A DNA stretch of 64,000 bases, from contig CAUVXB020000001.1 in the NCBI GenBank assembly GCA_963555825.3, positions 2,016,001-2,080,000 of the forward strand, in the 5' to 3' direction. The stretch is from Alphaproteobacteria bacterium (GTDB lineage: Bacteria; Pseudomonadota; Alphaproteobacteria; JAAXGF01). The position numbers and the translations under genes were made by a program. Of the stretch, positions 26,591 to 63,776 are shown one piece after another. Position 1 is the first letter of the stretch, and every line of letters begins with the position of its first letter. The notes under the pieces are model-generated. The model was not told the DNA's origin and did no database searches. It worked only from the letters and a program-made list of their open reading frames with translations.

Positions 26591-26792
26591 TCACGCGCCG
26601 TAGCGGAACCGGTTGGTGATCGGGTAACGGCGGTCGTCGCCCACCGACCAGCGCGTCATCAGCACGTGCTCGCGCCACGACGTGGCTTGCGCGCGCGGGC
26701 TGCGGTCGGCGTCGAGCACGAAGGAGGCGCCGTCGAACACCAGCTCGTCCCGGCCGCCGACTTGGTTGACGTAGATCAGCGGCAGGCCCGAT
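26591..26792 (-). pseudogene. Diverged, internally deleted duplicate of nadE (internal segment fused to the 3' end)
   Basis: 26591-26636 matches nadE 27446-27491 with 1 mismatch; 26633-26792 matches nadE 28364-28523 with about 19 mismatches by hand count. Confidence 0.92.
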
Positions 26793-26910
26793 CGCTCATA
26801 CTTCGATCGAGTGATTTCGGTCCACATGTTGCGCCTCCATCGCTGATAAACCACAACGAAAGCATGACAAGAGACTGATTCCACTCAACTCTTTTTCGGC
26901 CAGACAATTA
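26790..26910 (-). mobile_element. IS5-family left-end remnant with the first codons of the transposase
   Basis: GGAGG RBS plus 'MWTEITRSKYERSGL', resembling alphaproteobacterial IS5-family transposase N-termini (MWTEITR..YER.GLRY); family call from recall only. Confidence 0.6.
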
Positions 26911-27062
26911 GAGCTTGGAAGCCAACAAGCCACTTCTTCCCGACAAAGCGGAGAGCGTCGCGCAAGACGATTGTGGCAATGGTGAGCCTGTCCAATGCGG
27001 GGGCTCTAGACGTAAGGTAATTACTGGGCGCTTACGGCACCGCCAACGTTCCCCTGCTTAAC

Positions 27063-27296
27063 TTAGTTTTGAATCTGTTTGGACACATCCTTGAAAACGT
27101 CGGGTTTCGGTACGGTGTTGTCCGGCAATGTATTTTTTAATTGTTTAGTTTGAGCTGTATTGCCTGACGAGACGCTTCCGCCCTGATTAAAATATCCGGT
27201 TTGTGCTTTCTGTTCATCCGCAGCGTATGTTGGGCCACCCAGAAGACTGGTGAACAATGCAGCAGCAACAAGAGTTACACCCATTTGGGGAAACAT
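27063..27296 (-). CDS. Small AT-rich putative secreted protein
   Basis: AAGGAG RBS; hydrophobic signal-like N-terminus ending 'TYA-A'; 77 aa. Confidence 0.5.
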   Translation of the reverse strand: MFPQMGVTLVAAALFTSLLGGPTYAADEQKAQTGYFNQGGSVSSGNTAQTKQLKNTLPDNTVPKPDVFKDVSKQIQN

Positions 27297-27445
27297 GATC
27301 TTGCTCCTTATCCGAATGTGGCGAAATACAATTGTAACGGTAATAAGCGGCCACGTAAACGACCGTTATCAGGAGTGGACGCAATACGAATTCGCAGTTC
27401 TTGGTGAATTCGGAGACTCCCCGTAACTAGAACAACCCGCGCCAC

Positions 27446-29110
27446 TCACGCGCCGTAGCGGAACCGGTTGGTGATCGGGTAGCGGCGGTCGCGGCCGAAG
27501 GATCGGCTGGTGATCTTTACGCCGGGCGGCGCCTGGCGGCGCTTGTATTCGGCGAGGTCGAGCATGCGCGAGACACGGCGCACGACATCGGCGTCGTGGC
27601 CGCGCGCGGCGATCTCGTCGATGCCCTGCTCGCCCTCGACCAGGCATTCGAGAATGTCGTCGAGCACCGCGTAGGGCGGCAGGCTGTCCTGATCGGTCTG
27701 ATCGGGCCTGAGCTCGGCCGACGGCGGCTTGGTGATGATGGCGTCGGGTATGACCTCGCCGGTCGGACCCTTGGTGCCGCCCGGCAGGGTTTCGTTGCGC
27801 CAGCGCGCCAGCGCGAAGGCCGTCGTCTTGTAGACGTCCTTGAGCACCGAATAGCCGCCGCACATGTCGCCATAGAGCGTCGCGTAGCCGACCGACATCT
27901 CGGATTTGTTGCCCGTGGTCAGCACCATGTGGCCGAGCTTGTTGCTGATCGCCATCAGGATCATGCCGCGGATGCGCGCCTGCAGGTTCTCCTCGGTGAC
28001 GTCCGGCTCGCGGCCGGCGAACAACTCGCCGAGCATGCCGCCGTACGCCTCGACCGCGCTCTCGATCGGCACCGTATCGAGGCGCACGCCGAGCCGCTCG
28101 GCGCAGGTCCGGGCATCGTCGAGCGAGCCTTGCGAGGTATAGCGCGACGGCATCATCACGCAATGCACCGCGTCCGGCCCCAGCGCGTCGACCGCGATCG
28201 CCGCGCTGAGCGCCGAATCGATGCCGCCCGAGAGCCCGATTACGACGCCCGGAAAGCGGTTCTTGCCGACGTAGTCGCGCAGCCCCGTCATGGTCGCCTG
28301 ATAGATCGCCGCCTCGCCCTCCTCGGCCTTGGCGATGTCGGCGGCGGCGCAACGCCAGCGGCCGTCATCGCCGACCGACCAATGGGTCATCAGCACGGTC
28401 TCGCGCCACGACGGCGCCTGGGCGCGCAGGTTCCGATCGGCGTCGAGCACGAACGAGGCGCCATCGAACACCAGCTCGTCCTGGCCGCCGACCTGGTTGA
28501 CGTAGATCAGCGGCAGGCCCGATTCGGTGACCCGCGCGACCGCCAGGCTCAGCCGGTCGTCGGGCTTGTCGAGCTCGAAGGGCGAGCCGTTCGGCACGAC
28601 GAGGATCTCGGCGCCCGACTCCTCGAGGCATTCGGTGACGTCGGCGGTCCACATGTCCTCGCAGACCATGACGCCGAGGCGCACGCCCTTGAACGGCACC
28701 GGCCCGTTCAAGGGGCCGGCGGTGAACAAGCGCTGCTCGTCGAAGACGCCATAGTTGGGCAGATCGTGCTTGGGGCGCACCGCGGCGACGCCGCCGTCGG
28801 CCAACAGATAGGCGGCGTTATAGAGCTTGCCGTCATCGCGCCACGGCGCGCCGACCAGCATCGCCGGGCCACCGTCGCCGGTCGACTGGGCGAGGCGCTC
28901 GATGGCGCGCTCGACGCGCTCGACGAGCGCCGGCTTGAGCACCAGGTCCTCGGGCGGATAGCCAATCAGCACGAGCTCGGTATAGACGACCAGGTCGGCG
29001 CCCCCGGCGGCCGCTTCGTCGCGCGCCGCGAGCAGGCGGTCGGCGTTGCCGTCGACATCGCCGACGGTCGGGTTGAGCTGCGCCAGCGCGATGGTGAGCG
29101 ATTCGGTCAT
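27446..29110 (-). CDS. nadE: Glutamine-dependent NAD+ synthetase
   Basis: Nitrilase domain ('LAQLNPTVGD', 'GYPPEDL', 'VCEDMW') plus 'GLSGGIDSA', 'TGNKSE', 'PPSAELRP'. Confidence 0.97.
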   Translation of the reverse strand: MTESLTIALAQLNPTVGDVDGNADRLLAARDEAAAGGADLVVYTELVLIGYPPEDLVLKPALVERVERAIERLAQSTGDGGPAMLVGAPWRDDGKLYNAAYLLADGGVAAVRPKHDLPNYGVFDEQRLFTAGPLNGPVPFKGVRLGVMVCEDMWTADVTECLEESGAEILVVPNGSPFELDKPDDRLSLAVARVTESGLPLIYVNQVGGQDELVFDGASFVLDADRNLRAQAPSWRETVLMTHWSVGDDGRWRCAAADIAKAEEGEAAIYQATMTGLRDYVGKNRFPGVVIGLSGGIDSALSAAIAVDALGPDAVHCVMMPSRYTSQGSLDDARTCAERLGVRLDTVPIESAVEAYGGMLGELFAGREPDVTEENLQARIRGMILMAISNKLGHMVLTTGNKSEMSVGYATLYGDMCGGYSVLKDVYKTTAFALARWRNETLPGGTKGPTGEVIPDAIITKPPSAELRPDQTDQDSLPPYAVLDDILECLVEGEQGIDEIAARGHDADVVRRVSRMLDLAEYKRRQAPPGVKITSRSFGRDRRYPITNRFRYGA

Positions 29111-29388
29111 AGACGCCAGCCCGAAGTTCTCACCATGGACAGGCGCGTCATCGCGTCGGGCGGCCGCCGAGCCGCCAGAAAAAGGCCGCGGAGCGTAGCC
29201 TGGGCCACGGTCAAGGCCTTCGACGCCGCGGGCGGGCCGCCCGGCGCGACCCTTAAGGGCGGCGGATCTCGGACGACAGGCCGCGTCAAAGCGCTTGCCC
29301 GATGCGCAAGCATCGTGGCCCGCGCGCTTTTCCTAGCCTGTCGTCCGATATACGCCGTGCCGCACCTGTCCATGGTGAGAATTCCGGG

Positions 29389-30573
29389 CTATGTCTTGCG
29401 CAGCAGGAACTCGCGGCCCAGCTTGACGCTGGGCTCGCCGTCGTAGGCGACGATGTCGGCGGTGGCATAGGTCTCGGGCCAGCTGTCGGGCAGGAACGAG
29501 CCGGTGCCGACCAGATCGATCGGCGCGTCGACGCTCGCCATGACCTCGCATTTCGCCTGGTTGAAGCCGGAGCTCGCGACGATTTTGACGCGCTCGAAGC
29601 CAGCCTCGTCGAGCGCATCGCGCAAGTGGTAGATCGCCGCCGCCGAAACGCCGGTGCCGACCAGCCAACGCAACTCGGCGTCGGTCCGGTAGCGGCGGAT
29701 ACCCTTGGGCACGTGGCGGTCCAAGACGGCGTAGGACGCCGCGGTATCGAGCCCCTCGACGAAACGTCCGCCGTGGGTATCGAGGCGCATGGCGAGACGG
29801 CCGTCGGCGGCGAGTTCCGGAAAACGCCGGCAGACGGCGAGCGCATCGGTTACCTCCCGGCCGTAGTAGTCGACCAGGGAGGTGATGTTCTCGTCCGGAT
29901 AGGTCTCGGCGAACATTTCGGCGGCGCGCAGTGTCGAGCCGGCGTAGCCGATCAGCGCGTGCGGCATGGTGCCGAGGCCCCGGTCGTTGCCGAAATAATG
30001 CGCCGTCGCGTCGGTCGCATTGCCGACGAAACCGACCGCGCCGTGGCGTTCGCGCGCCGCGCGCGAACCGACGCTCGCCGCATAGGCCATCATTTCGGCC
30101 ATCTCGTGGCCGGCGCAGTGGCGCGCGTCCATGGCGAGGAAACCGACCTTGGGCAGCGCCCGGCACATGGCGTAGGCGTTGTACGCGGCGACGCAGGGCG
30201 GCCCGAGGCGCTGCAGATAGAGCGTCTCCAGATCGACCAGATTGACCAGCGAGCCCGAGAGATAGAGCAGCGGTTCGCCGGCGCCGACCCACTCGCCCTC
30301 CCTGTAGTTGAGCTCGATGTCAAACGTCACGCCGCGCGAGGGAGCGACGCGCTCGAGCCAGTCGACCATCAGGCGCGGCGCGAAGTAGACCGGCAGCCGC
30401 ATGAACACGGCGTAGGTCGCGCGCTTGTCGCCGAAACGCGCGACGACCTGCTTGGTATTGTTGAAGTACTGGTCCGTGGTGCGGGCGATCGCCTCGTCCA
30501 TCGCGGCGGCCTCGACCGCGTCGTCAGGCGCCGGCACGGCGCCAGCAGGCTCGGTCGCGGGCGACCGGACCAT
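29389..30573 (-). CDS. Nicotinate phosphoribosyltransferase-like protein (start uncertain)
   Basis: 'TDQYF', 'MDARH', 'GTMPHALIG', 'RLDT', 'IVASSGF', 'GTGS'; adjacent to nadE. Confidence 0.8.
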   Translation of the reverse strand: MVRSPATEPAGAVPAPDDAVEAAAMDEAIARTTDQYFNNTKQVVARFGDKRATYAVFMRLPVYFAPRLMVDWLERVAPSRGVTFDIELNYREGEWVGAGEPLLYLSGSLVNLVDLETLYLQRLGPPCVAAYNAYAMCRALPKVGFLAMDARHCAGHEMAEMMAYAASVGSRAARERHGAVGFVGNATDATAHYFGNDRGLGTMPHALIGYAGSTLRAAEMFAETYPDENITSLVDYYGREVTDALAVCRRFPELAADGRLAMRLDTHGGRFVEGLDTAASYAVLDRHVPKGIRRYRTDAELRWLVGTGVSAAAIYHLRDALDEAGFERVKIVASSGFNQAKCEVMASVDAPIDLVGTGSFLPDSWPETYATADIVAYDGEPSVKLGREFLLRKT

Positions 30574-30580
30574 GCCGCCG

Positions 30581-31960
30581 TCAGGACGCCGCGGCCAAGC
30601 GCGCTCCATCCACGCGTTCCTTCTTCAATGCCTCGGCGATCAGGAAGGCAAGCTCGAGCGCCTGCGATGCGTTGAGCCGCGGATCGCAATGGGTGTGGTA
30701 ACGGTCGGCGAGTGAATGTTCGGTGATCGCCTGGGCGCCGCCGATGCACTCGGTGACGTCCTGGCCGGTCATCTCGAAATGGACACCGCCGGCGTAGGAC
30801 CCCTCCCTTTGGTGAACCGCGAAGAAGCCGCGCACCTCGGCCAGGATACGGTCGACCGCGCGGGTCTTGTAACCGGTCGACGACTTGATCGTGTTGCCGT
30901 GCATCGGATCGCAGGACCACACTACCCTGCGGCCCTCGCGCTCGACCGCGCGGACCAGCGGCGGCAGGCCGGTCTCGACCTTGTCGGCGCCCATTCGCGC
31001 GATGATCGTCAGGCGGCCCGGCTCGTTCGCAGGGTTGAGCACATCGATCAGGCGCAAAAGGTCGTCGGGATCGAGCGTCGGCCCGGCCTTGAGCCCGATC
31101 GGATTGCCAACGCCGCGCAGGAACTCGACATGCGCGCCGTCGAGCTGGCGCGTGCGGTCGCCGATCCACAGCAAATGCGCCGAACAGTCGTACCAGTCGC
31201 CGGTCGTCGAATCGATGCGTGTCAACGCCTGTTCGTAGCCGAGCAGCAGCGCCTCGTGCGAGGTGTAGAATTCGGTCGTGGCGAGCTGCGGCGCGGTCTC
31301 GGACGTGATGCCGCAAGCCTCCATGAAGGCCAACGCGTCGCTGATGCGGTCGGCCATCTCCTGGTAGCGCTCGCCCTGCGGGCTGCGCGCGACGAAGCCG
31401 TGGTTCCAGCGGTGCACTTGGTGCAGATCGGCATAGCCGCCCTGCGCGAAGGCGCGCAGCAGATTGAGCGTCGCCGCCGATTGCAGGTAGACCTGGACCA
31501 TGCGCTCGGGGTCGGGCCGGCGCGCCTCGGGGGTGAACTCGATGCCGTTGATGATGTCGCCGCGGTAGCTCGGCAGCTCGACGCCGTCCTGCACCTCGGT
31601 GTCGCCCGAGCGCGGCTTGGCGAACTGGCCCGCCATGCGACCGACCTTGACGACCGGGCAGTCGGCGCCGTAGGTCAGCACCACGGCCATCTGGAGCAGC
31701 ACGCGGAAGGTGTCGCGGATGTTGTCAGGGTGGAATTCGGCGAAGCTTTCCGCGCAGTCGCCGCCCTGGAGCAGGAAGGCGCGGCCCTCGGCGATCTCGC
31801 CGAGCTGCGCCTTCAGCCGGCGCGCCTCGCCGGCGAAGACCAGCGGCGGATAACCCCTGAGGCGCGCCTCGGCGGCCTCGAGCACGGCCTTATCGGGCCA
31901 CGCGGGTTGCTGCTTGATCGGTAGGTTGCGCCAGCTGTCGGGCGCCCACGTCTTCGCCAT
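30581..31960 (-). CDS. Class II DAHP synthase
   Basis: '[11 protein letters not shown]', '[12 protein letters not shown]', 'SHEALLL', 'CDPMHGNT', 'CDPRLN'. Confidence 0.96.
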
Positions 31961-32134
31961 AACGATCCTCAACGTCTCGTCAAATTTGCACCAGTTTGCG
32001 GGAGAGCCCAGCCTATACGCCGATTCGATGGGTATTTCCAGCCCGTTTCGCCCACGCCACCGCCCGCCCAGGACTTATATGGCTATCTTCGAACGCGATG
32101 TCAGCACCGTCGCCCAGCCGGGTTTGACAGCCGT

Positions 32135-33529
32135 TTAGACCGGAACGCTATCGTGTCCCACGGCGGCCTGTGCGGGCACGGGCTCGGCAACGGGATCGCG
32201 CATGGTGACGAACTCCTCGGCCGAGGTCGGGTGGATGCCCACGGTGGCGTCGAACTGGGCCTTGGTCGCGCCGCATTTGACCGCGATGCCGATGCCCTGA
32301 ATGATCTCGCCCGCGTCGGGGCCGACCATGTGGACGCCGACGACCCGGTCCGACGCGCGGTCGACGATCAGCTTCATCAGCGTCTTCTCGTCGCGCCCGC
32401 CGAGCGTGTGCTTCATCGCCCGGAAGTGCGAGCGGTAGACGTCGACCGCGCCATGGGTCTCGCGCGCCTGGCTCTCGGTCAGCCCGACCGTGCCGATGGC
32501 CGGCTGGCTGAACACGGTCGACGCCACGTCGGCGTGATCGGGCCGGGTCGGGGCGCCGCCAAACACCGTGTCGGCGACCGCATGGCCCTCCTTGATCGCC
32601 ACCGGCGTCAGGTTGACGCGGTCGGTGACGTCGCCGACGGCGTAGATGTTGTCGACCGACGTCTTGGAGTATGCGTCGACGACGATGGCGCCCTTGGCGT
32701 TCAGCGCGACGCCGGCGTTCTCGAGACCGATATTCGCGGTCAGCGGCGCCCGGCCGGTGGCGTACATGATGCAGTCGGCATCGATCGTCGCGCCGTCCTC
32801 GAGTGTCGCGCGCAGCGCGCCGTCGGCCTGCTCGATGCCGGCGATGTTGGCGTTGAAGCACAGCTCGATGCCCTTCTTGGCCATCTCCTCGGCGAGCGTG
32901 GCGCGCACGTCCTGGTCGAAACCGCGCAGGAACAACGGCCCGCGGTAGAGCTGGGTGACCCGCGCGCCGAGGCCGTGGAAGATGCCGGCGAACTCGACCG
33001 CGATGTAGCCGCCGCCGACCACGACAACCCGCTCGGGCAGGCCGTCCAGGAAGAACGCCTCGTTCGAGGTGATCGCGTACTCGGCGCCGGGTACGTCGGG
33101 CTTGGCCGGCCAGCCGCCGACCGCGACCAGGATTGTATCGGCGCTAAAGGTCTGCTCGCCGACCGCAACGGTATGCGCATCGACCAGATCGGCGTGGCCG
33201 TCGAAGACGTCGACGCCACTGGCCTCCAGCATGCGCGCATAGACGGTGTTGAGCCGCTCGATTTCGCTGTTCTTGTTGGCGATCAACCGCGCCCAGTCGA
33301 AGCGGCGCTCGCCGACGGTCCAGCCGAAGCCGGCGGCGTCCTCGAAATCCTCGCCGAAGTGCGAGGCATAGACCAACAGCTTCTTGGGCACGCAGCCGAC
33401 ATTGACGCAGGTGCCGCCGAGATAGCGCTCCTCGGCCACCGCCACCTTGGCGCCATGGCCGCCCGCGATGCGCGCCGCGCGCACACCACCCGACCCGCCG
33501 CCGATGACGAAGAAATCGTAGTCTGCCAT
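32135..33529 (-). CDS. gor: Glutathione-disulfide reductase
   Basis: '[11 protein letters not shown]', '[13 protein letters not shown]', '[13 protein letters not shown]'. Confidence 0.96.
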
Positions 33530-33600
33530 GGATATTGCCTCTTATTCTCGGGGAGCGCTTGAACGCGACGTAGGGATCGTCGCGTGTGAATCAACGCGTG

Positions 33601-34959
33601 TCATGCGGTCGCGCCGGCGTCGATGCGCATCTCGTAGGCGCGCCATCGTCGGATGAGGAACGCCACCATCACGGCCGCCTGCAGAAACACCGGCAGGATC
33701 GCAATCAGCGGGTCGGCCCATGGTACGGGCAGGAACACGGGAAGCGCCGCGTCGCCATCGAAAACCTTCAAGAGCATCGGCACCAGCCCATAGAGCACCA
33801 GCCAATAGACCACCGCAGCCAAGTCCGCCCGTCGCGCGACGCGGCCGAGATGGAGGCTGAGCAGCAGCGCGATGTCGCGCGTCAGGAACAAGACAGCGGC
33901 GACGACGAACGTCATCTGGATGTCGCGGCTGGCGTCCGCGGCCTGTGTGATCGCGACCGCCACGGCTAGCGCGCTGCCCAAGGCAAGGCCATAGGTGATC
34001 ATCCAGAGTGGCAGGTTCTCGAGCGCCGTGCGGAATTCGGCGGCGCGCAGCGCGCCGAGCATGCGCCGAACCGCGACGACGTCTTTAGATTCGAACAGCA
34101 TGCCGACATAGTTGAGCGCGAAAATGACGGCGGTGAAGACCGCCACGCGAACAACCGTCGATTCCAGGGCGGCCGTCTCGTCGGCGTCCATGAGGCCGAC
34201 GACGTAGAGACCGAGGAAGAGACAGAACAACGGCCAGACCCAGGGCTTGCCGGCGAGCTGCAGCTCGGCGCGCATCACCCGGTAGACGCCGAACACGGCC
34301 CACAAGGCGAAGGCGACCGTCGAATTGACGGCGAAGGTCGCCGGCACGACGAGGACACCGTGCCAACGGCCGTAGAGGCCGTCATCGAACGCCCCAACCG
34401 CACCGTAAACCAACGAGATCATGGCCAAGCCGGCGAGTTGGAAGAGCGTGACGTTCAAGCGCCTTCCGACCACGTGGCCGCGCACCGACAACAGACTGAT
34501 CAGCAAGCCACCCGCCTGGCAGAGAACGCCGACCGCGAGATAGGTCACGGCGGACGTCATGATCGATTCGAGGCTTTCGTGGCCGATACGCGCGAGCGCG
34601 AAGACCGCGAGCGCGATCAGGCCGCCGTACCATGTGAACACCGTGCTGCCGAACAGCTTGCCGACGGTCATCGCCCAGGGCCCGACCGCGGTCAGCTTCT
34701 GGTCGTCCCAGGTGCGGTCCCTGATCTCCTCGACAACCGCGCCGGCGGCGAGCCGCCCGCCCCACATCACGACGATCAATCCATAGGCGACGAGCGCGAC
34801 GTCGGCCACGGTCGACGCCGCCTCGGCGTTGCCCAGCGCGAGTGAGCCACCCTTAAGGGCATAGGCGAGGATGAACACGGCGGCGAGCACGACCGGCATT
34901 GCGATCAATCGGTGTGTCGACAGCTCGAGCCATAGATTGCGGCGCAGCTCGGGGTTCAT
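33601..34959 (-). CDS. Polytopic membrane protein, probable ABC-2-type permease partner of the upstream ATPase
   Basis: More than 10 hydrophobic segments; 'MNPE.RRN.WLE', 'EI..RTWD...LT......GKL'; overlaps the ATPase stop. Confidence 0.7.
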   Translation of the reverse strand: MNPELRRNLWLELSTHRLIAMPVVLAAVFILAYALKGGSLALGNAEAASTVADVALVAYGLIVVMWGGRLAAGAVVEEIRDRTWDDQKLTAVGPWAMTVGKLFGSTVFTWYGGLIALAVFALARIGHESLESIMTSAVTYLAVGVLCQAGGLLISLLSVRGHVVGRRLNVTLFQLAGLAMISLVYGAVGAFDDGLYGRWHGVLVVPATFAVNSTVAFALWAVFGVYRVMRAELQLAGKPWVWPLFCLFLGLYVVGLMDADETAALESTVVRVAVFTAVIFALNYVGMLFESKDVVAVRRMLGALRAAEFRTALENLPLWMITYGLALGSALAVAVAITQAADASRDIQMTFVVAAVLFLTRDIALLLSLHLGRVARRADLAAVVYWLVLYGLVPMLLKVFDGDAALPVFLPVPWADPLIAILPVFLQAAVMVAFLIRRWRAYEMRIDAGATA

Positions 34960-35900
34960 CGCCCACCCCCTTCGTCGCCGTTCCGGCGCATGCGGGCGAG
35001 GTAGAGGTCGTGCATGCGCGCGCGATCCTCGGCGAACTCCACAACCGCAATATCGGCATCGAGCAGGTGCCTCAACAGCCGCCCGCGCGTCTCGGCGTCG
35101 GGGGCGATCGAGACGGTCGCCGTGGTTCCCTCGACCACGGCGTCGCTCGCGCCGTCGAACGCCGCCAGCACGCCCGGCAGCCGCGTATCGGGCGCGGCAA
35201 GCTCGATCCTGACCACTGTTGTCGCGGCATCGCGTGCATCGAGCCTTCGGTGGTCGATAACCCGGCCGTCGTCGATCATCAGCACGTCGGTCGAGTAGTC
35301 CTCGAGCTCGGACAGGATGTGCGAGGACACGATGAGCGTGATGCCGTTGCGGCTCAGCTCGACCAGCAGCTTCGAGAGCGACAGGCGCGCGCCGGGATCG
35401 AGGCCGGACGCCGGTTCGTCGAGCAACAGAATTCGGGGCTCATGCACCAGCGCCTGAGCGATCGCCAGGCCCTGCCGTTGGCCGCGCGACAGCGCGCCGG
35501 CCTTCTGGTCGAGCAGCGCGCCGATGTGGAGCCGCTCGGCGGCGAGCGCGACGGCCCGGTCGATATTCTCCGGCGCAACGCCCTGCGCGGCGGCGCGGTA
35601 GGTCAGGCACTGGCGCGCGGTGAGGTCCTCGTAGAGGCCGAAGAAGTCGGAGAGATAGCCGATCCTCCGGTGACATTCGCGCGGGTCGTCCGAGACGTCG
35701 ATGCCGTCGACCGTGATCGTGCCGTCGTAGGACCGCGCCAGGGCCGCGACGCAACGCAGCAGCGTCGTCTTACCCGCCCCGTTGGGGCCGACGAGCGCTG
35801 TGATCGTATCGGGCGCGACGTCGACCGACACGCCGTTGAGCGCGCGCTTGCCGGGATACTCGAAGACCAGATTGTCGACCCGGATCACCGGCTCAGCCAC
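34956..35900 (-). CDS. ABC-2 type transporter ATP-binding protein
   Basis: Walker A 'GPNGAGKTT', signature 'LSRGQRQ', 'LLDEPASGLDP'. Confidence 0.93.
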   Translation of the reverse strand: MAEPVIRVDNLVFEYPGKRALNGVSVDVAPDTITALVGPNGAGKTTLLRCVAALARSYDGTITVDGIDVSDDPRECHRRIGYLSDFFGLYEDLTARQCLTYRAAAQGVAPENIDRAVALAAERLHIGALLDQKAGALSRGQRQGLAIAQALVHEPRILLLDEPASGLDPGARLSLSKLLVELSRNGITLIVSSHILSELEDYSTDVLMIDDGRVIDHRRLDARDAATTVVRIELAAPDTRLPGVLAAFDGASDAVVEGTTATVSIAPDAETRGRLLRHLLDADIAVVEFAEDRARMHDLYLARMRRNGDEGGGR

Positions 35901-35987
35901 GGCGCAGCCCTTCGTTCATGTGCATCGAATAGCATTGGGGACGGATAACGAACCCGCCCCCTGCTGGTCCCCTCGATTGGCTTCGGT

Positions 35988-37445
35988 CTATAGGTCGACA
36001 CCGCCCATGCACATGTATTTGACCTCGAGAAACTCGTCGAGGCCGTGGTGCGCGCCCTCGCGGCCGATGCCCGATTCCTTCATGCCGCCGAACGGCGCCA
36101 CCTCGGTCGAGATGATGCCCTCGTTGATGCCGACGATGCCGTATTCCAGCCCCTCGGCGACGCGCCAGATGCGGCCGATGTCGCGGCTGTAGAAGTAGGC
36201 CGCGAGGCCGAACTCGGTGTCGTTGGCGAGCCGGATCGCCTCGTCCTCGGTCGAAAAGCGGAACAGCGGCGCGACCGGGCCGAAGGTCTCCTCGCGGGCG
36301 ACCTTCATCTGGGTGTCGACGTCGGCCAGCACGGTCGGCTCGAAGAAGGTCCCGCCCAGTTCGTGGCGCTTGCCGCCGGCGATGACGCGGGCGCCCTTGG
36401 CGACGGCGTCCTCGATATGCTCCTCGACCTTGTCGACGGCGGCGGAGTCGATCAGCGGCCCCTGCTGGGTCTCGCCCTTGAGGCCGTCGCCGACGACTAG
36501 CTTGTTGGCCGCGTCGGCCAGCTTCTCGCTGAACTCGTCGTAGACGTTGTCCTGGATCAGGAAGCGGTTGGCGCAGACGCAGGTCTGCCCGGTGTTGCGG
36601 TACTTCGAGGCCATGGCGCCGGCGATCGCGGCGTCCATCTGGGCGTCGTCGAAGACGATGAACGGCGCATTGCCGCCCAACTCCATCGAAACCTTCTTCA
36701 CGGTGCGCGCCGACTGCTCCATGAGCATCTTGCCGACCTCGGTCGAGCCGGTGAAGGTGATCTTGCGGACGATCGGGTTCGAGGTCATCTCGCCGCCGAT
36801 CGCGCCGGCCGATCCGGTGACGACGCTGAACACGCCGGCCGGCACGCCGGCGCGCTCGGCCAGCTCGGCGAGCGCGGTCGCCGAATAGGGCGTCGCGGTC
36901 GCCGGCTTGGCGACGATGGTGCAGCCGGCGGCGAGCGCCGGACCGACTTTTCTGGTGATCATCGCCGAGGGGAAGTTCCACGGCGTGATCGAGGCGACGA
37001 CGCCGACCGGTTCCTTGGTGACGATGATGCGCCGGTCGCCGACGGTCTGCGGGATGACGTCGCCATAGGCGCGCTTGCCTTCTTCCGCGAACCACTCGAG
37101 GAACGACGCGGCATAGGCGATCTCGCCGCGCGATTCGGCCATCGGCTTGCCCTGCTCGGCGGTCATCAGCACGGCGAGGTCATCGAGGTTGGCGAGCATC
37201 AGCTCGAACCACTTGCGCAGCACGCCGGCGCGTTCCTTGGCGGTCTTGGCGCGCCACGCCGGATAGGCCGCGTCGGCCGCCTCGATGGCGCGCCGCGTCT
37301 CGTCGGCGCCCAAGCGGGGCACCGTGCCGATGGTCTCGCCGGTAGCCGGATTGGTGACGTCGACGGTCGCGCCCGTATCGGCGTCGACCCATGCGCCGTC
37401 GATATAGCATTGCTGACGGAACAGGCTGCTGTCCTGCAGTTTCAT
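35988..37445 (-). CDS. gabD: Succinate-semialdehyde dehydrogenase (NADP+)
   Basis: 'ITPWNFPSAMITRK', 'MELGGNAPF', 'RNTGQTCVCANR', 'APFGGMKESG.GREG'. Confidence 0.93.
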   Translation of the reverse strand: MKLQDSSLFRQQCYIDGAWVDADTGATVDVTNPATGETIGTVPRLGADETRRAIEAADAAYPAWRAKTAKERAGVLRKWFELMLANLDDLAVLMTAEQGKPMAESRGEIAYAASFLEWFAEEGKRAYGDVIPQTVGDRRIIVTKEPVGVVASITPWNFPSAMITRKVGPALAAGCTIVAKPATATPYSATALAELAERAGVPAGVFSVVTGSAGAIGGEMTSNPIVRKITFTGSTEVGKMLMEQSARTVKKVSMELGGNAPFIVFDDAQMDAAIAGAMASKYRNTGQTCVCANRFLIQDNVYDEFSEKLADAANKLVVGDGLKGETQQGPLIDSAAVDKVEEHIEDAVAKGARVIAGGKRHELGGTFFEPTVLADVDTQMKVAREETFGPVAPLFRFSTEDEAIRLANDTEFGLAAYFYSRDIGRIWRVAEGLEYGIVGINEGIISTEVAPFGGMKESGIGREGAHHGLDEFLEVKYMCMGGVDL

Positions 37446-37583
37446 GGCGATCTCCCTGGAACCTAAGTTCGGCCGCGCGCCGCTGCCGCGTGCCGGAATG
37501 GATGTGTGCCCCCAATATAGTCGCGCCCAAGCGTCCCGCCAAGACCGGGAAGATCACCGGCAACGGCGCCATCGGGTTGGGGC

Positions 37584-37609
37584 GTGGGGAAGGGCGAGCC
37601 CTTCCCCAC
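37584..37609. repeat. Perfect 11-bp-stem palindrome GTGGGGAAGGG-CGAG-CCCTTCCCCAC
   Basis: Read directly; intergenic, no U tract. Confidence 0.7.
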
Positions 37610-37624
37610 CGCGAACGCCGCCTT

Positions 37625-37836
37625 GGCGGCGTCGACAACGGCACGGGCCTGGCGCCGACCAGATGGTCGCCAGCGCGCTGCGCTACCGCAGCCAAGCGCC
37701 CCCGATCGACGGGCTGATGAAGGAGATTGGCCTTTCGGGCGTCGATCTTGCCGGCCTCGCCGGCGGCCTCACCGGCCAACTTGCGAACGGCCACGACACC
37801 GCGCCCACCGGCGACGACAGCGTCGCCGCCGAGTAA
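37625..37836 (+). pseudogene. 3'-terminal remnant of a flotillin/YqiK-like gene
   Basis: 'GL/ADQMVASALRYRSQAPPIDGLMKEIGL' resembles bacterial flotillin C-termini; frameshift near 37650; no 5' part present. Confidence 0.55.
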
Positions 37837-37855
37837 GGCCCGCCGACGGCGACCA

Positions 37856-37910
37856 CCCCTACTCCACCGTCACTGACTTGGCGAGGTTGCGGGGCTGGTC
37901 GACGTCGGTG
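37856..37910 (-). repeat. Diverged duplicate of the glmS 3' end (TDVDQPRNLAKSVTVE*)
   Basis: 55 bp matching 38761-38815 with 4 mismatches, all synonymous. Confidence 0.95.
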
Positions 37911-38070
37911 TCAATCCTCGCGGCCGCGCCATCATACCTTTTCGACGACGAGAAAGAGCAACCCGTGGTTAGATTTATTGCCATTGAAATGTTGCAATGG
38001 GACGCTAGTAAGAATATGCATTAAGTGCAACGGTGAGTTCGTATCGTAGTATTGTGCTAGAGGAAGATTC

Positions 38071-38631
38071 ATGCAAGCTCTCCGAGACGAACTTCTTGAA
38101 ACTCAAAAAGCTAGGACGAGTCTTACCAGATGGAAGATTGTCATTATCGCGGCGACCGGCGCGGCCGCCTTTAAGATTGGAGGTTTAGAGTTCGAGTTCG
38201 ACAACCGTGTTTTACTCGTCTTACTCCCTGTTATGTGTGTCTATGTCGATGGACTCATTTTCCATTATGCTTGGCGCGTCAAAGAAATCGGTTATTTCGT
38301 GCCGGTCTACTCAACGCCAGGACCGAACTGGGAATATTTGAGAGACTACGAAGTATGGCTCCGTCACAAGAAAGTCAGGGAACCTTTCAAATACCGGATT
38401 GAGGAATTTGCGGTAGCCTGGGCTACATACGTGGTTTGCTCGTTAGTATTTCTTGCTGGTCTGGTATTTCGTGATCTTGCGCTTGAAATACAAATATCCT
38501 TGTGGCTCTCGAGCCTGTTGGGGCTCATTACGAAGTATGTCAAACATCGATACGCCAAGAAATTGGTTGAGCTTGAATCCGAACCATATGAGCGACCGGA
38601 CAGCAAGTCGATCGACACTGATTCTGGATAA
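38071..38631 (+). CDS. AT-rich hypothetical membrane protein (about 4 TM)
   Basis: GAGG RBS, 186 aa, hydrophobic segments; lies between the two glmS ends. Confidence 0.75.
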   Translation: MQALRDELLETQKARTSLTRWKIVIIAATGAAAFKIGGLEFEFDNRVLLVLLPVMCVYVDGLIFHYAWRVKEIGYFVPVYSTPGPNWEYLRDYEVWLRHKKVREPFKYRIEEFAVAWATYVVCSLVFLAGLVFRDLALEIQISLWLSSLLGLITKYVKHRYAKKLVELESEPYERPDSKSIDTDSG

Positions 38632-38763
38632 TTGCGCTTAAATTGACGTTCTCGGGTGTTTCGACCGGTGTGACCCACCCGGGTCTCGTTGCGGTGGGGT
38701 AGTCGAATATCCGTTAGGATAGCAAAAGCGATCTGCGACACCGACCAGAGGCGAACTATACCC

Positions 38764-48932: not shown

Positions 48933-48977
48933 TTCGATTAAGCCAATTCTGTGTCCAAGGAAATCGGGTCCGACTCA

Positions 48978-49429: not shown

Positions 49430-49761
49430 GAAGAACCCTCCCGGATGTCAAAAGGTAGTTCTTTCCGAGTGCTTACGCTCTCATCGCACTAGGTTTCTTC
49501 CGACGTCTCAGTCCATATTTGATCCGACATTCCCGGATAACCGCTTTTCCGACTTGTCACGATAGCACAAAGGGCGCTCAGCGAGGAGTATTCCATTATA
49601 CGGGGTCAGCAAAATTACAATCTATCAGGAGAATCCGGGTTTAAGAAAATATGGGTCGGCGGGTCGTCTGGATAACGGTTCGCGCCGGGTCCGGCGGCCG
49701 TGAATTCCTCGACGGTCGCGCAAAATACCGCCTTCACGCGACCGCCTCGCGCACGCCCTCC

Positions 49762-50890: not shown

Positions 50891-50930
50891 GCATCATCCG
50901 ACCGATCGGCATCGATCGGATCATGCTCTA
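50891..50930. repeat. Dispersed palindromic element (copy 2), overlapping the TAG stop of the DUF6134-like gene
   Basis: GCATCATCCGACCGATCGGCATCGATCGGATCATGCTCTA; 4 mismatches over 36 bp to copy 1. Confidence 0.7.
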
Positions 50931-55703: not shown

Positions 55704-55705
55704 CC

Positions 55706-59960: not shown

Positions 59961-59964
59961 GGCG

Positions 59965-60013
59965 TTACGCCACCTCGCTGATTTGGTGTTCGGCCGCCTC
60001 GAGCCAGGCGGGG
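59965..60013 (-). repeat. Diverged duplicate of the 3' end of the mandelate-racemase-family gene
   Basis: 49 bp matching 62676-62724 with 5 mismatches (PAWLEAAEHQISEVA* vs PAWLEAAEHQVSEVA*). Confidence 0.95.
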
Positions 60014-60120
60014 AAACAAATTGCAACTTTGTATATTGATAAGACCATTCAAAATCGCCACGTCATCGACGGAATGTTGGCCAATGTGCGTCAGTTAAAC
60101 AAATACGGGAAGCAGTAGAC

Positions 60121-61098
60121 ATGACCAATCAAACCTGCCCGATTTGGGGAACCCCGGCAACGTATATCGGACACATTGGACCGACGGATTCCGAACTGTG
60201 GGATTCGCCGCGCGCAGGAGGTCGGTTCGTAGTAACAGCAGAGGCAGTGGCGGAGGTCGGCGATGTACCAGATGGCGACAAAATTCGACTGACGACGTGG
60301 ATTGTGAATCAAAATCGGTTGAGTTCTACCCCGCCAGCAGTTGCATTGGGGGATATTGATAGGATTAAGGCTGATCGTGATCTTACCGTCTTGGAGCGGC
60401 GTGACGCGCTATTGACCTATCTTCAACGGAAGGAGACACGAATTGGTTCTGGTGTACAAGTCGGCGGTACCGTCAGCAAAGAATATCTAGTTTCTCAAGC
60501 CGAGCTTCTAGCCTGGACCGGCTCTCTAGACCACAAAGAGGTGTACTACCTCATCGATTCTAGCGTCGATACTGGACATACAAAACTAATTAAATCTCCA
60601 CAACCAACGCTACGTTTAACGACTCACGGGTATGAATATCTCCAAAATCTTCAGTCCGTTCAGAGTAGCTCAGAACAAGCATTCGTTGCGATGTGGTTCG
60701 ATGAAACCATGAGACAGGCATACGACATGGGATTTCACACTGCGATTACCGATACCGGGTATAGACCGAAGCGCATCGATCGGAAGGAACACATAACCAA
60801 GATTGACGATGAAATTGTCGCCGAAATCCGCCGATCGCGTTTCGTTGTCGCTGATTTTACGTCGGAACCCGACAACCCACGAGGCGGCGTCTATTTCGAG
60901 GCCGGGTTCGCTTACGAATTACAAATACCTGTAATTTGGACGTGCCGAGATGATCTAATTCATCACGTTCATTTTGATACGCGCCAGTTCAATCATATAG
61001 TCTGGTCGGCCCCGGACGATCTCTATACCAAGCTCAAAAATCGCATTGGCGCCGTCATCGGTGAGGGTCCGTTGACCAAAGTCACGATCGAACACTGA
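60121..61098 (+). CDS. AT-rich protein with a C-terminal nucleoside-2-deoxyribosyltransferase-like domain; possible defence gene
   Basis: 'AFVAMWF...RIDRKEH..KIDDEI.AEIRRSRFVVADFT....GGVYFEAGFA...PVIWTC....HFD..Q.NHI.W'; wHTH-like 'LTTHGYEYL' upstream. Confidence 0.75.
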   Translation: MTNQTCPIWGTPATYIGHIGPTDSELWDSPRAGGRFVVTAEAVAEVGDVPDGDKIRLTTWIVNQNRLSSTPPAVALGDIDRIKADRDLTVLERRDALLTYLQRKETRIGSGVQVGGTVSKEYLVSQAELLAWTGSLDHKEVYYLIDSSVDTGHTKLIKSPQPTLRLTTHGYEYLQNLQSVQSSSEQAFVAMWFDETMRQAYDMGFHTAITDTGYRPKRIDRKEHITKIDDEIVAEIRRSRFVVADFTSEPDNPRGGVYFEAGFAYELQIPVIWTCRDDLIHHVHFDTRQFNHIVWSAPDDLYTKLKNRIGAVIGEGPLTKVTIEH

Positions 61099-61183
61099 CC
61101 GCTTCACCAAGCGTTCAGTCATCGCAGAACAATTTCGCGATACAAAGCGATATTCGACGGTAAACTAATCTGGGTTTGAGTAG

Positions 61184-61909
61184 TCAAATGCCGGGAAAAA
61201 GGGGTAACTCCTCGCCTGCAGGGGTACGGCGACGTTTTTGGTCTGCAGGTGCGATCTTTACCGCCATATCAAAGCCAGAAAAGAAGATAGTCAGTAGATC
61301 ACGCGCTTCCTTTGATTCAAACGTCGGCAGGCCGCTTTGATGGCAAACTTTGGCGGTTCTCGCTCCATCATCGTCGACACTGAAATCTATAAACTCAATC
61401 GGAAAACCAGCCACTTCTCCTCGGGCGAATGCCCGTCGTACGATCCAGGAATAAAACGACCATTGCCGTGGAGTAAGTACAAAACTCTTCCTCGGTTGCG
61501 GCACTAATATGGTCGGTCCAGATTCTCGCAAGATCAAGGGGCCAGGCCGAATGGTCGTCATCAACCTAGGCGCAGGTCTCAATTGCAAGCGCTTGGTTGA
61601 AAGTGGGACTGCTCGGAATTTGCCACCGCCGTATTTACGATAAAGGCACCGAGCGACATCTACATTGTGGTCCCGGCCCTTCTTGTGTCCTCAATTAGCA
61701 CAAGTTGCCGCCGCCTCATCCTCACTTCGACATTTCGAAACGATGTCATGGCTGGCATCAACAAACGGACCATACCCCCAAACCGGTGGCCGCTTCCAAA
61801 ACTCCAAAAGGTTTTCAGCAGTAGCTTTGGCGTTCGAATCTTCGGTTGAATATGTGCTCGCAACCAAACGAGCGATATCCTGCGCTGGGGGAGCTGATCT
61901 ACTGGCCAT
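61184..61909 (-). pseudogene. SocB-like toxin gene interrupted by one in-frame TGA (61691-61693)
   Basis: ORFs 61691..61975 and 61184..61588 share a frame and the 102 nt between them are open; directly downstream of a DUF4065 gene. Confidence 0.6.
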
Positions 61910-62033
61910 GTACTTTTCGACGGTCGATGGGGAAAAATCGCTGATAGTGTAGTCGGAGAACGAGATAATTACCACATATAGCGTGGCGAGTCGATTCGGA
62001 ATGCGCCCTATTTGTTCTCAAATTCCGCCTGTA

Positions 62034-62534
62034 TCAATGAATTTTATGTACGCTGTCCACAGATTGAAAATGTTGGAAAATCAAATCATCGTCAATGATA
62101 TCGCCGGGCGCAACAATCTTGTCATTGAATACAGCGTCCCAAGGACCACCAGATGCATGAGTTAGGTCAACTAAATGAAATGTAGTAATTTTCGAATAAT
62201 ATAAAAATATTTCTTCGACGAGGTATTTTTCTGACGAATTGAACTCTGGTCGCGATTCTACGCTGAGAGATGTTTCGAAATCGAATATCTCGGCTCGTCC
62301 CGTGATCGGACTCGCGCTTGGCGTTTCGCGAAACGCTTCGTACACCAGTCTAATCACTGGTCCATAATTCCATGCTTCGAACGATTGCCGAATAAGTGGT
62401 CCTGAATTCCGGGCAAGCCACCACCCGTGCGTGAAGTAGAGCAACTTTTGAAGGTGCAACATAGTAAGCGGACGTGAATATTGATCTGACAAGTCTAAAA
62501 GATGGTTCGCGACCGCACGTGCATCATGCGCCAT
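62034..62534 (-). CDS. Panacea/SocA (DUF4065) antitoxin
   Basis: 'VANHLL...LT..HLQKLLYF.HG', 'FEAWNYGPV...VY', 'LVDLTH..GGPW'. Confidence 0.9.
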   Translation of the reverse strand: MAHDARAVANHLLDLSDQYSRPLTMLHLQKLLYFTHGWWLARNSGPLIRQSFEAWNYGPVIRLVYEAFRETPSASPITGRAEIFDFETSLSVESRPEFNSSEKYLVEEIFLYYSKITTFHLVDLTHASGGPWDAVFNDKIVAPGDIIDDDLIFQHFQSVDSVHKIH

Positions 62535-62675
62535 GAGTCAAAGACCTTTGCCAGTCCACATTACAAGGTTAACGATAAAATATTGTTTTAGCCAGAAATT
62601 TGGAGCGATTTTTCAAGAGAGTCCTTCCTATCGATCCCGGTTTGGCAAAGTGAGATGGAGTTCCAAATCACTCAA

Positions 62676-63776
62676 TTACGCGACCTCGCTGACCTGGTGC
62701 TCGGCCGCCTCGAGCCAGGCCGGGTTGATCTCGACGCCCCAGCCGGGGCCGTCGGGGATGGCGACTTTGCCGTCGCGCGCTTCGAGCGCGGGCGTGAAAA
62801 GGCCGTCCTGCCAAGGATAGTAGTCGAGGCCCTCGATCGAGAACTCGACGTAGGGTCCGGCGTTGGCGATCGCGCCCATCATGTGCAGCGTGAAGACCGT
62901 GACCATCGAGAGATTGGCGCAATGCGGCGTGCAGGGCAGGCCCGCGTCTTGCGCCATTCTGGCGACGCGCAAGGCGCGGGTCAGGCCGCCGACATAGCAG
63001 ATGTCGGGCTGGACGACGTCGACAGCGCGCATCTCGATCATGCGGCGCCAGGTCGGCAGATCGCAGTCCTGCTCGCCGCCGGTGACGTCGAGCGCGAGCG
63101 CGCGGGTTACCTCGGCCGTCCAGTCGAGCTCCCAATAGGGACAGGGCTCCTCGAAATGGACGACGCCGTTGTCCTCGAGCATGCGGCCGAGCGTGATCGC
63201 CCGAGCCGGCGTGTAGCAGCTGTTGCCGTCGACCAGCAGCGTTGCGTCGTCGCCGAGTGCTGCGCGCACCGCCGGGACGATCGCCTCGGAGCGGCCGGGC
63301 CATTCGTCCTCGTCGCGGCCGACCTCCTTGCCGACGCGGAACTTGAAGGCGTCGTAGCCGTGCGCGTCGCGCAGCCGGGCGAAACGCGCGGCCTCGTCCT
63401 CGGGCGTGATGTCGCGGCGCATGCTCGAGGCATAGACCCGGAGCGGCCGCGGCGTGCCGCCCAAGAGTTCGCAGACGCTCTTGCCCTCGAGCCGGCCGCG
63501 CAGGTCCCACAGCGCGGTGTCGAGCCCGCCAATCGCGCGGCGCAGGTACGAGCCCGGAAACTTGTGCTCGCGCTCGGGGATCAGATCGACCAGCGCGTCG
63601 ATGTCGGCGGCGTCGGCGCCCAGCGCGTGGGGCGCGACCTGGCGGTGCATCACGGTCGCCGCGATGTCCGAGAAATAGGGCGAAATCTGGCCCCAGCCCT
63701 CGGCCCTGTCGTCCGTCGTGACGCGGACGAAGCTGACGTCCTCGGTGCTGAACGTCTCGATTCGGGCGATTTTCAT
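62676..63776 (-). CDS. Mandelate racemase/muconate lactonizing enzyme family protein
   Basis: 'ALWDLRG', 'FKFRVG', 'LVDGN', 'FEEP', 'GGEQ', 'QPD..YVGG', 'PDGPGWG'. Confidence 0.92.
   Translation of the reverse strand: MKIARIETFSTEDVSFVRVTTDDRAEGWGQISPYFSDIAATVMHRQVAPHALGADAADIDALVDLIPEREHKFPGSYLRRAIGGLDTALWDLRGRLEGKSVCELLGGTPRPLRVYASSMRRDITPEDEAARFARLRDAHGYDAFKFRVGKEVGRDEDEWPGRSEAIVPAVRAALGDDATLLVDGNSCYTPARAITLGRMLEDNGVVHFEEPCPYWELDWTAEVTRALALDVTGGEQDCDLPTWRRMIEMRAVDVVQPDICYVGGLTRALRVARMAQDAGLPCTPHCANLSMVTVFTLHMMGAIANAGPYVEFSIEGLDYYPWQDGLFTPALEARDGKVAIPDGPGWGVEINPAWLEAAEHQVSEVA

Follow-up and report, generated by a model that had tools for sequence, protein, structure and literature searches.

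How does a block of AT-rich DNA come to lie directly behind an intact gene, and in front of a second copy of that gene's own 3' end, when no recombinase gene accompanies it? The question is raised by three sites in a 64-kb stretch of an alphaproteobacterial genome (designated G000; 6.04 Mb in two contigs, C1 and C2, with a GC content of 65%). This stretch, G000:C1:2016001-2080000, is referred to below as the window, and positions given without a contig are positions within it. The genes concerned are nadE, glmS, and a gene of the mandelate racemase/muconate lactonizing enzyme (MR/MLE) family. The arrangement that they share, an intact gene followed by cargo and then by a displaced gene end, is a real, recurrent, old, and recombinase-free scar.

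All three genes lie on the minus strand, and at each site the insert is flanked by direct repeats that take in the target gene's end, with the stop codon inside every repeat. The nadE repeat (26591-26636/27446-27491) is 46 bp long with 1 mismatch and extends to 70 bp at 84% identity (26591-26660/27446-27515), the glmS repeat (37855-37910/38760-38815) is 56 bp long with 4 mismatches (93%), and the MR/MLE repeat (59965-60013/62676-62724) is 49 bp long with 5 mismatches (90%). Perfect runs within these repeats measure 20 to 36 nt. The DNA between the copies spans 0.8 to 2.7 kb and has a GC content of 53% at nadE and 48% at both glmS and MR/MLE. In 100 second-order Markov simulations of the window, direct repeats of at least 35 bp within 12 kb occurred at a mean of 0.01. 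The codons that differ between copies are synonymous at nadE (1/1) and glmS (4/4) and, with the exception of a V/I difference, at MR/MLE (4/5). Coordinates and codons thus agree with the preliminary description of this DNA, which had reported three gene-end repeats with 1, 4, and 5 mismatches, all synonymous but V/I; it had put the repeat lengths at 46 to 55 bp, which fits nadE and MR/MLE but falls short of the 56 bp at glmS.

The same build recurs across the genome. A k-mer scan returned 1398 direct repeats of at least 35 bp at a spacing of at most 40 kb. Native genes were called crudely from codon-position GC, which covered 68% of the genome, and repeats of at most 400 bp were sorted by the gene end contained in a copy, depending on whether the gene runs away from the interior (outward) or into it (inward); one repeat may fall in more than one class. 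Around interiors of less than 60% GC, repeats of 35 to 400 bp held 15 outward 3' ends and 7 outward 5' ends compared with 2 inward 3' ends and 1 inward 5' end, whereas around interiors of normal GC content the corresponding numbers were 41, 38, 35, and 31. This contrast (22 outward versus 3 inward at low GC content and 79 versus 66 at normal GC content; P = 0.0016, Fisher's exact test) bears out the genome-wide excess that the preliminary description had proposed to look for. Gene-end duplications around low-GC DNA amount to 19 repeat pairs at 18 loci on both contigs, with repeat lengths of 36 to 255 bp; a further pair, O (C1:1238055), was excluded, as it consists of tandem solute-binding paralogues. 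The 5' boundaries of the distal fragments are abrupt and lie at variable depth in the gene, and inspection by eye of 18 islets revealed no common motif at repeats or cargo ends. With three sites within 36 kb, the window is a local cluster (Poisson P of ~2-5e-4). When we simply counted direct repeats of 35 to 300 bp with an interior at least 7 GC points below the flanks, G000 held 25 events in 6.04 Mb (22 in 6.03 Mb when cut into 13-kb pieces), and 160 glmS-centered control loci from other genomes and metagenomes held 1 event in 2.10 Mb, an ~8-fold difference in density (P = 0.009) that is perhaps overstated, the controls all being core-gene neighborhoods.

Two loci found in this survey have features of their own. 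Islet K (G000:C1:28156-30748, locus L021) measures 2.6 kb, carries a cyclase-TPR gene, and is bounded by perfect terminal inverted repeats of 70 bp or more; the duplicated gene end on its flanks is 166 bp long. In build it is similar to a foldback-type element, and it is the only one of the 18 islets inspected to have 70-bp perfect inverted termini. At G000:C2:1026488-1031867 (L023), the junction between a gene end and the start of the next gene is present in three copies (270 bp at 100% and 252 bp at 96%), which surround an AsnC-type regulator and an ornithine/diaminopimelate decarboxylase gene at 54 to 56% GC. The arrangement looks like the outcome of events that were nested or followed one another at a single site.

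Recombinase genes do not accompany the scars. The window has no match to PF00589, even at an E value of ≤10, and none to PF00239, in keeping with the earlier statement that it lacks tyrosine and serine integrases, although a DDE transposase of the IS3 type does occur. The genome as a whole has 45 PF00589 matches at an E value of ≤0.001, mostly in multicopy pairs and trios. No recombinase was found inside or within 1 kb of 17 of the 19 gene-end repeat pairs, even at an E value of ≤10; as for the remaining two, one 29-kb pair encloses several recombinases and another has a recombinase pair ~0.4 kb outside it. Several cargos (809, 849, 851, and 885 bp) are too small for a recombinase gene. Adjacent trios of tyrosine recombinase genes are present as near-identical copies at G000:C2:601578-603959, 2328499-2329931, 3600917-3603298, and 65576-67957, with repeated pairs elsewhere, and we take them to resemble elements of the recombinase-in-trio type.

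The stretch is also present in sponge-metagenome runs and in runs of three organisms. Contigs of four runs have the same arrangement, with shares of the stretch's sampled words of 0.47 to 0.98, which suggests strains that differ by up to ~2% by our estimate. Since the arrangement is the same in all four, the scars are old and stable. We compared the independent contigs of these runs over 26000-39500, which covers the nadE and glmS sites. A sponge-metagenome run contributed a contig of 2306 bp that reaches from 36977 to 39280 and includes the cargo together with both glmS copies; it shows 11 differences. Around nadE, 26715/26763-27475 is covered by contigs of three runs, and those of 761 and 713 bp run from the displaced nadE remnant through the AT-rich insert into the proximal nadE copy; the nadE-spanning contigs end inside the 36-bp perfect repeat, as expected of de Bruijn contigs. 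No empty-site variant was seen among the contigs over this range, which are unable to exclude one. A chimeric assembly, in which the assembler joined strain variants in tandem, had been named as a way in which the preliminary description could fail. The genome's origin in a host-associated community of several strains speaks for such an artifact, as does a related genome (G004) in which a third, divergent glmS end lies where a contig ends. Given that the independent contig spans the whole glmS islet, where we reject an artifact, and that the contigs of three runs agree with the nadE junctions, we consider this explanation very improbable.

At nadE, the displaced copy is larger than the repeat. 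The intact gene (27446-29110, minus strand) encodes a glutamine-dependent NAD synthetase of 554 amino acids (Pfam NAD_synthase, 6.4e-71; CN_hydrolase, 7.8e-30), and its last 46 nt form the proximal copy (27446-27491). It is followed, on the same strand, by an AT-rich insert (26907-27445; 50% GC over 27001-27500) with a 77-aa open reading frame (ORF) at 27064-27296 that has a hydrophobic N terminus and no Pfam, NCBIfam, or PADLOC match. Next comes a ~125-bp fragment (26782-26906, minus strand) of a diverged IS5-type insertion sequence. It represents the 5' end, with the terminal repeat and the first ~15 codons, is 82 to 85% identical to at least six other places in the genome, was aligned with five full copies, and is fused to the nadE remnant (26591-26792, minus strand). 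The remnant, as delimited by repeats and codon analysis, consists of an interior piece (~residues 196 to 250) and the last 14 to 15 codons with the stop, in frame: positions 26628-26792 are 88% identical over 165 nt to the nadE interior at 28359-28523, and an in-frame internal deletion of 876 bp joins this piece to the terminal codons. Because the distal side of the cargo is made up of the remnant and the IS5-type end, its AT-rich part measures only ~540 bp; the AT-rich insert first described here is real, but it is shorter, and the distal copy with its IS5-type fragment is longer, than had been reported.

Since the interior piece and the end are joined, the second copy of nadE must once have measured at least 1.1 kb (at least residue 196 to the stop). 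The remnant carries 20 substitutions over 165 nt (12% diverged), with 3, 5, and 12 at codon positions 1, 2, and 3, and this pattern does look like that of a second allele. It is 88% identical to the intact gene and 87.9% identical to nadE of another genus (G004). The remnant adjoins cysS, which in two relatives (G005 and G012) lies directly beside the nadE end without an insert. We also considered an extra-conserved crossover block at the nadE terminus, where 1 mismatch per 46 nt was observed versus ~3.8 expected, a difference that is not significant.

The glmS and MR/MLE sites are built alike. The intact glmS gene (38764-40587, minus strand, 607 aa; Pfam SIS and GATase_6) ends in a proximal copy (38760-38815) made up of its last 51 nt and 4 to 5 nt past the stop. 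Beyond it lie 849 bp of cargo (37911-38759, 48% GC) and the displaced 56-bp 3' end (37855-37910, minus strand), which is identified by the repeat, the codon check with its 4 synonymous differences, and the independent contig, and which gives way to native GC-rich DNA. The only ORF in this cargo (38071-38631, plus strand, 186 aa) belongs to no known family: it had no relative in 400 genomes of the class and no Pfam, NCBIfam, or PADLOC match. At the third site, the intact MR/MLE gene (62676-63902, minus strand; Pfam MR_MLE_C, 1.8e-58), whose proximal copy (62676-62724) ends exactly at the stop, is followed by 2662 bp of cargo (60014-62675, 48% GC) and a displaced 49-bp 3' end (59965-60013, minus strand), which by repeat and codon check carries 4 synonymous differences and a V-to-I change and is again succeeded by native GC-rich DNA. 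This cargo holds a SocA/Panacea-type antitoxin gene (62034-62534, minus strand; Pfam SocA_Panacea, 3.1e-18; NCBIfam SocA antitoxin, 2.7e-42, below its cutoff), two small ORFs (61691-61975 and 61184-61588, minus strand), and a gene for a 325-aa protein (60121-61098, plus strand) with a weakly TIR- or nucleoside deoxyribosyltransferase-like C terminus (Pfam Nuc_deoxyrib_tr, 2.8e-5, below the cutoff; PADLOC TIR effector, 7.2e-7).

The glmS slot can be followed across genomes. The comparison drew on 13 genomes of the family, which also make up the order in the collection; the nearest glmS proteins (70 to 74% identity) come from bins labeled Alphaproteobacteria, Thalassospiraceae, or Rhodospirillales, and JGI metagenomes contained no close relative, the best glmS identity there being 79%. 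The 161-nt glmS end has two matches each in G000 and G007, three in G004, a single one in each of 7 further family genomes, and none in the remaining 3. In G007, glmS is followed by a 710-bp MntA/HepT-like pair, a 150-bp glmS fragment, and the same aldehyde dehydrogenase neighbor as in G000. One contig of G004 (C128) has glmS, a metallo-hydrolase gene, and a 96-bp glmS fragment, and another (C24) has a further divergent glmS end at the contig end and then an MNT/HepT-like pair with 74% and 69% identity to the G007 pair. In G011 and G006, the neighbor lies 117 to 152 bp from glmS, with no insert. The slot therefore holds alternative cargo without mobility genes, namely, the orphan ORF in G000, MNT/HepT in G007 and G004:C24, and the metallo-hydrolase gene in G004:C128, and is empty in G011 and G006; the different cargos in one slot for which the preliminary description had suggested searching relatives are thus found at glmS, in three genera. 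A separate observation on G004:C128 concerns a gene (L133, 1808-5137) that lies between the displaced glmS fragment and the conserved neighbor and encodes an 1109-aa protein matching the PADLOC TmtA defense model (1e-95).

Displaced glmS fragments differ in length between G000 (56 bp), G004 (96 bp), and G007 (150 bp), so that an attachment site of constant extent is not seen at this target, although more than one element may have given rise to them. Outside the family, none of the 77 genome loci and none of the 74 metagenome loci had another glmS end downstream (3/10 in the family versus 0/151 elsewhere; P = 1.8e-4). In all three genera, the distal copy is nearest to the glmS of its own genome (92 to 93%, compared with 78 to 88% between genera), a grouping that points to independent events or gene conversion. 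A single ancient event common to the genera was rejected, since the distal copies group with their own glmS and not with each other, a pattern that gene conversion could mimic. Integrase-bearing relatives with attachment sites here would have spoken against the scars as first described; no integrase-bearing element and no full element of the integrative and conjugative (ICE) or integrative and mobilizable (IME) type was found at glmS in the 13 family genomes or the 151 loci elsewhere, and none lies near glmS in G004 or G007. No duplication of the nadE or MR/MLE end was seen in relatives.

Toxin-antitoxin and defense-type genes (SocA, AbiEi/AbiEii, MNT/HepT) are abundant in the cargo. Outside the window, it includes AbiEi/AbiEii, a glutathione transferase, a glyoxalase, a cyclase-TPR protein, a pentapeptide protein, and many DDE transposases. 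Relatives of the 325-aa protein, at 41 to 48% identity or lower, were found in 21 of 400 other genomes of the class, and in two high-GC genomes they sit in AT-rich islets of one or two genes; at the 8 loci examined, none lies beside an MR/MLE gene. A similar scar occurs next to one such relative in another lineage: in an unrelated genome of the class with 68% GC (G221:C1:127000-145000, L227), a 133-bp copy (4976-5108/8120-8252) of a gene's 3' end and the start of the next gene, upstream of the intact 1016-aa gene, adjoins a 1.5-kb AT-rich islet that holds the relative. As a shared agent of insertion, we considered a sequence common to three islets and rejected it, as it proved to be a 757-bp repeat resembling a miniature inverted-repeat transposable element (MITE), with many identical copies unrelated to gene-end repeats. 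This repeat has 43-bp terminal inverted repeats and is present at G000:C2:1112833-1113590 (L013) and at least eight other places at 99 to 100% identity (for example, C1:1230790-1231545, C1:2277436-2278191, and C2:408290-409046). It looks like a currently active MITE or small nonautonomous insertion sequence and lies inside several AT-rich islets.

We tentatively favor, ahead of relic attachment sites, a homology-anchored, recombinase-free insertion with an illegitimate joint as the origin of these scars. The incoming DNA would have consisted of a homologous gene end and foreign AT-rich genes, and its recombination would have taken place within the last part of the resident gene's coding sequence, leaving that gene whole; the cargo would land directly after the stop, and a truncated second end would remain before the native downstream DNA and decay. 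Host recombination would most likely have done the joining, by a single homologous crossover within the gene together with a single illegitimate joint in the resident end, as in homology-facilitated illegitimate recombination (HFIR). Vertical inheritance, invasion by insertion sequences, trimming by deletion, and occasional exchange of cargo would follow, and toxin-antitoxin and defense-type genes would persist best. The enzymes, the donor, and which copy is the resident one are what we infer in this scheme. We rank homology-anchored insertion first because there is no recombinase trace, because the targets are many protein genes, because the fragment varies in length at one target, and because the nadE remnant is long and diverged; the three fragment lengths at glmS (56, 96, and 150 bp) are what an illegitimate joint predicts. 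Also in its favor are the outward excess of gene ends around low-GC interiors, the lack of a common motif at repeats and cargo ends, a synonymous share across 16 islets above that of unselected change, the presence of ComEC and DprA, and the age and stability of the scars. The preliminary description had already proposed homology together with an illegitimate joint, a proposal that the variable glmS fragments and the apparent second nadE allele support and that its own argument, from synonymous bias, does not.

Small variable segments have been suggested to arise by HFIR, which is known from Acinetobacter, Pseudomonas stutzeri, and Streptococcus pneumoniae (PMC2884548, citing de Vries & Wackernagel 2002, Meier & Wackernagel 2003, and Prudhomme et al. 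2002). Like the scars, it involves one homologous anchor and one illegitimate joint without an element-encoded enzyme; unlike them, it is described, in the sections of PMC2884548 drawn on here, from laboratory work with naturally competent species, and those sections contain no recurrent genomic signature of displaced ends.

Several findings weigh against homology-anchored insertion. Neither a donor nor a joint with microhomology was seen. A sliding comparison of intact nadE with six relatives, which are only ~80% identical, revealed no mosaic breakpoint. On average, no GC-rich donor stub follows the proximal stop (the first 40 nt have 60% GC and the rest 56%; P = 0.16). A route of uptake is also weakly indicated: of the genes that the preliminary description had suggested searching for, ComEC and DprA are present but generic (matched in 10 and 11 of 14 control genomes), and the gene transfer agent marker GTA_TIM was not found in the genome. 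Where the homology stops is a further difficulty. On the cargo side, it ends 0 to 4 nt past the stop in 8 of 16 islets (A, B, C, E, H, L, I, and Z) and 7 to 47 nt past it in 7, with one ambiguous, and in two 5'-end cases it starts at or 3 nt before the start codon. Such coding-delimited homology is the hallmark of gene-restoring attachment sites and would also follow if the relative that supplied the incoming allele had unrelated downstream DNA; homology-anchored insertion requires donors with cargo right at the stop or with unalignable intergenic DNA. Two islands outside the 19-pair list do carry a recombinase or its remains: a tRNA island at C2:994311, with a 46-bp repeat, retains a 132-aa integrase remnant, and island T (C1:2273920-2281437), which has the same build, with a 45-nt near-identical block and then a tail, ~70% identical, that reaches an ABC ATPase gene's stop, holds an Xer-like tyrosine recombinase that scores below the XerC/XerD cutoffs.

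The substitutions do not discriminate either. Our set comprised 16 hand-picked 3'-end pairs with an interior GC content of up to 0.614, leaving out 5' cases, one paralogue pair, and ambiguous pairs. The preliminary description had taken synonymous bias to mean that both ends evolved as functional alleles and are not decayed duplications. Of the differing codons, 52/87 are synonymous and 35 are not, with 24, 13, and 64 changes at codon positions 1, 2, and 3 (64/101 at the third position), compared with a synonymous share of 0.26 to 0.40 expected of unselected change. Because the intact copy remains under selection, ~55% synonymous change is by our estimate expected even for copies that were identical at birth, and the argument from synonymous change needs correction for that selection. 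The identical-at-birth model is not rejected by 52/87 (P = 0.22), a result that also counts against homology-anchored insertion, and is weakly rejected by the 9/10 synonymous codons of the three window sites (P = 0.023). Distal copies are AT-richer (42 versus 26 sites; P = 0.07), likewise an unfavorable point, and they decay, as evidenced by a nonsense codon in islet D, the 876-bp deletion and insertion sequence fragment at nadE, and several nonconservative changes. The allele argument is therefore not supported: synonymous bias alone is neither proof of two functional alleles nor a discriminator between host recombination and a gene-restoring integrase element.

Such elements provide the next explanation, a possible but less probable one. 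The islets would be relics of site-specific integrative elements that carried an integrase and a gene-restoring attP end, lost the integrase and most of their genes by deletion, and survived as remnants that keep addictive toxin-antitoxin genes. We rank it second because of the coding-delimited homology (8/16 3'-end cases and both 5'-end cases), the classic layout of island T with its Xer-like recombinase, and the toxin-antitoxin- and defense-rich cargo; the integrase remnant of the tRNA island indicates that such decay happens here, and synonymous bias is expected of gene-restoring elements too. Phage 21 and e14 integrate in icd of Escherichia coli and carry a replacement gene end, so that an intact hybrid gene, the element, and the displaced native 3' end follow one another, as here, with largely synonymous differences and homology that ends with the gene; unlike the islets, they encode an integrase and span tens of kilobases. 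Against this origin stand the 17/19 islets without a recombinase trace, the at least 16 protein-gene targets that would need as many specificities, the three glmS fragment lengths in one family with none in 151 loci elsewhere and no integrase near glmS of G004 or G007, and a nadE duplication of at least 1.1 kb, which is far above the usual blocks of att identity. Cis-mobilizable elements (CIMEs) are decayed elements that retain attL and attR (PMC5704250), and they resemble the islets in their flanking repeats and lack of integration and transfer genes. CIMEs derive from recognizable ICEs or IMEs, each target having one att specificity, unlike the islets, which have many protein-gene targets, no related full element, a variable repeat length, and no mobility remnant in the cargo.

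Two further explanations appear unlikely to us. In one, template switching or fill-in at a broken or stalled fork site in the gene end would have captured foreign DNA and duplicated the gene's own end (36 to 255 nt) as a copy identical at birth; the copies would since have diverged, the intact one under selection and the other freely. The 52/87 synonymous and 64/101 third-position changes fit this scheme, as do the nonsense codons, nonsynonymous changes, and AT drift of the distal copies and the proximity of each distal glmS to its own proximal copy in three genera. Yet the genome has no Ku gene, which also led us to reject capture by nonhomologous end joining (as the lack of GTA_TIM did for a gene transfer agent); the nadE remnant is no nearer to the intact gene (88%) than to G004 nadE (87.9%), the junction at the stop codon in half of the cases goes unexplained, and the window sites are at odds with identity at birth (9/10 synonymous; P = 0.023). 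The other explanation, to which we give equally little credence, invokes homing cassettes without a recombinase: an addictive cassette with a gene-end arm of 36 to 255 nt would excise between the repeats as a circle and enter a new host by a single RecA crossover at the same conserved gene end, leaving the gene intact. The architecture is indeed that of a Campbell-type single-crossover product, repeats of 36 to 255 bp are near the minimum for homologous recombination, and the cargo is of a selfish (toxin-antitoxin) kind, with a homologous MNT/HepT module after the glmS end in two genera. However, the same cargo and arm were not found at the same target in another genome, the relatives of the 325-aa protein (21/400 genomes) did not lie beside MR/MLE at the 8 loci examined, and the MNT/HepT genes are more diverged (74% and 69%) than glmS (88%), as under vertical descent; a circular form was not observed among contigs, which cannot show one.

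Other known systems share parts of the architecture. Tn7 inserts downstream of the glmS stop, at attTn7, with a 5-bp duplication and tns genes. Its target, just past the glmS stop, is the one used here, but in the islets the duplication comprises 56 to 150 bp of glmS, and no transposase is present in the cargo; Tn7 itself was rejected at the window site, which has no tns genes and a duplication of 56 bp of glmS itself rather than 5 bp. To our knowledge, a duplicated gene end is not part of the definition of minimal mobile elements. Such elements, in Neisseria, and core defense hotspots are slots between conserved genes, occupied by small cassettes that alternate, lack mobility genes, and are exchanged through flanking homology (PMC3787668 and PMC3082526), and the glmS slot, with its different cargo in three genera, is like them as summarized there. 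The microcin H47 island of E. coli is small, has imperfect direct repeats and no site-specific recombinase of its own, and recombines between its repeats independently of RecA (PMC3191183 and PMC5426353); unlike the scars, it is a single island, and the portions of these sources used here do not describe its repeats as gene ends.

The window holds other repeats and low-GC DNA as well. The low-GC patches at 46.5 to 47.5 kb, 49.0 to 49.5 kb, and 10.5 to 11 kb are without gene-end repeats. The window's DDE transposase belongs to an IS3-type element with an rve-domain ORF (47593-48504) and a second ORF (48501-48932). Beside this element, in the region 47593-49650, is a patch of 42% GC that contains a 163-aa orphan ORF (48938-49429); this AT-rich insert lies downstream of a cation-efflux gene and is without a gene-end repeat. 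A 36-nt repeat at 46192-46227 and 50891-50926, 4.7 kb apart, was rejected as a gene-end scar, being instead a palindromic element in which a central palindrome is framed by two 11-nt arms; a similar palindrome opens the cargo of islet M, and these may form a family like the repetitive extragenic palindromic (REP) sequences. Three tandem paralogous genes on the plus strand (3083-4582, 4658-6076, and 6113-7603, together 3083-7603) are the source of repeats spaced by 1.5 kb.

Most small strain-specific inserts in bacteria have no known insertion mechanism, and here some twenty of them carry the same readable scar; a limited keyword search of the literature found no paper that describes displaced gene ends as a signature recurring genome-wide without integrases. 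If the islets are relic attachment sites, they represent ordinary island decay with an unusual bias to the ends of protein genes, and if they are homing cassettes, they would point to an enzyme-free mobile-element lifestyle that is favored in a sponge-associated lineage. If homology-anchored illegitimate capture is true, the displaced gene end would be a sequence signature by which such events can be counted, and the process would be a sizeable source of accessory and defense genes in a host-associated lineage.

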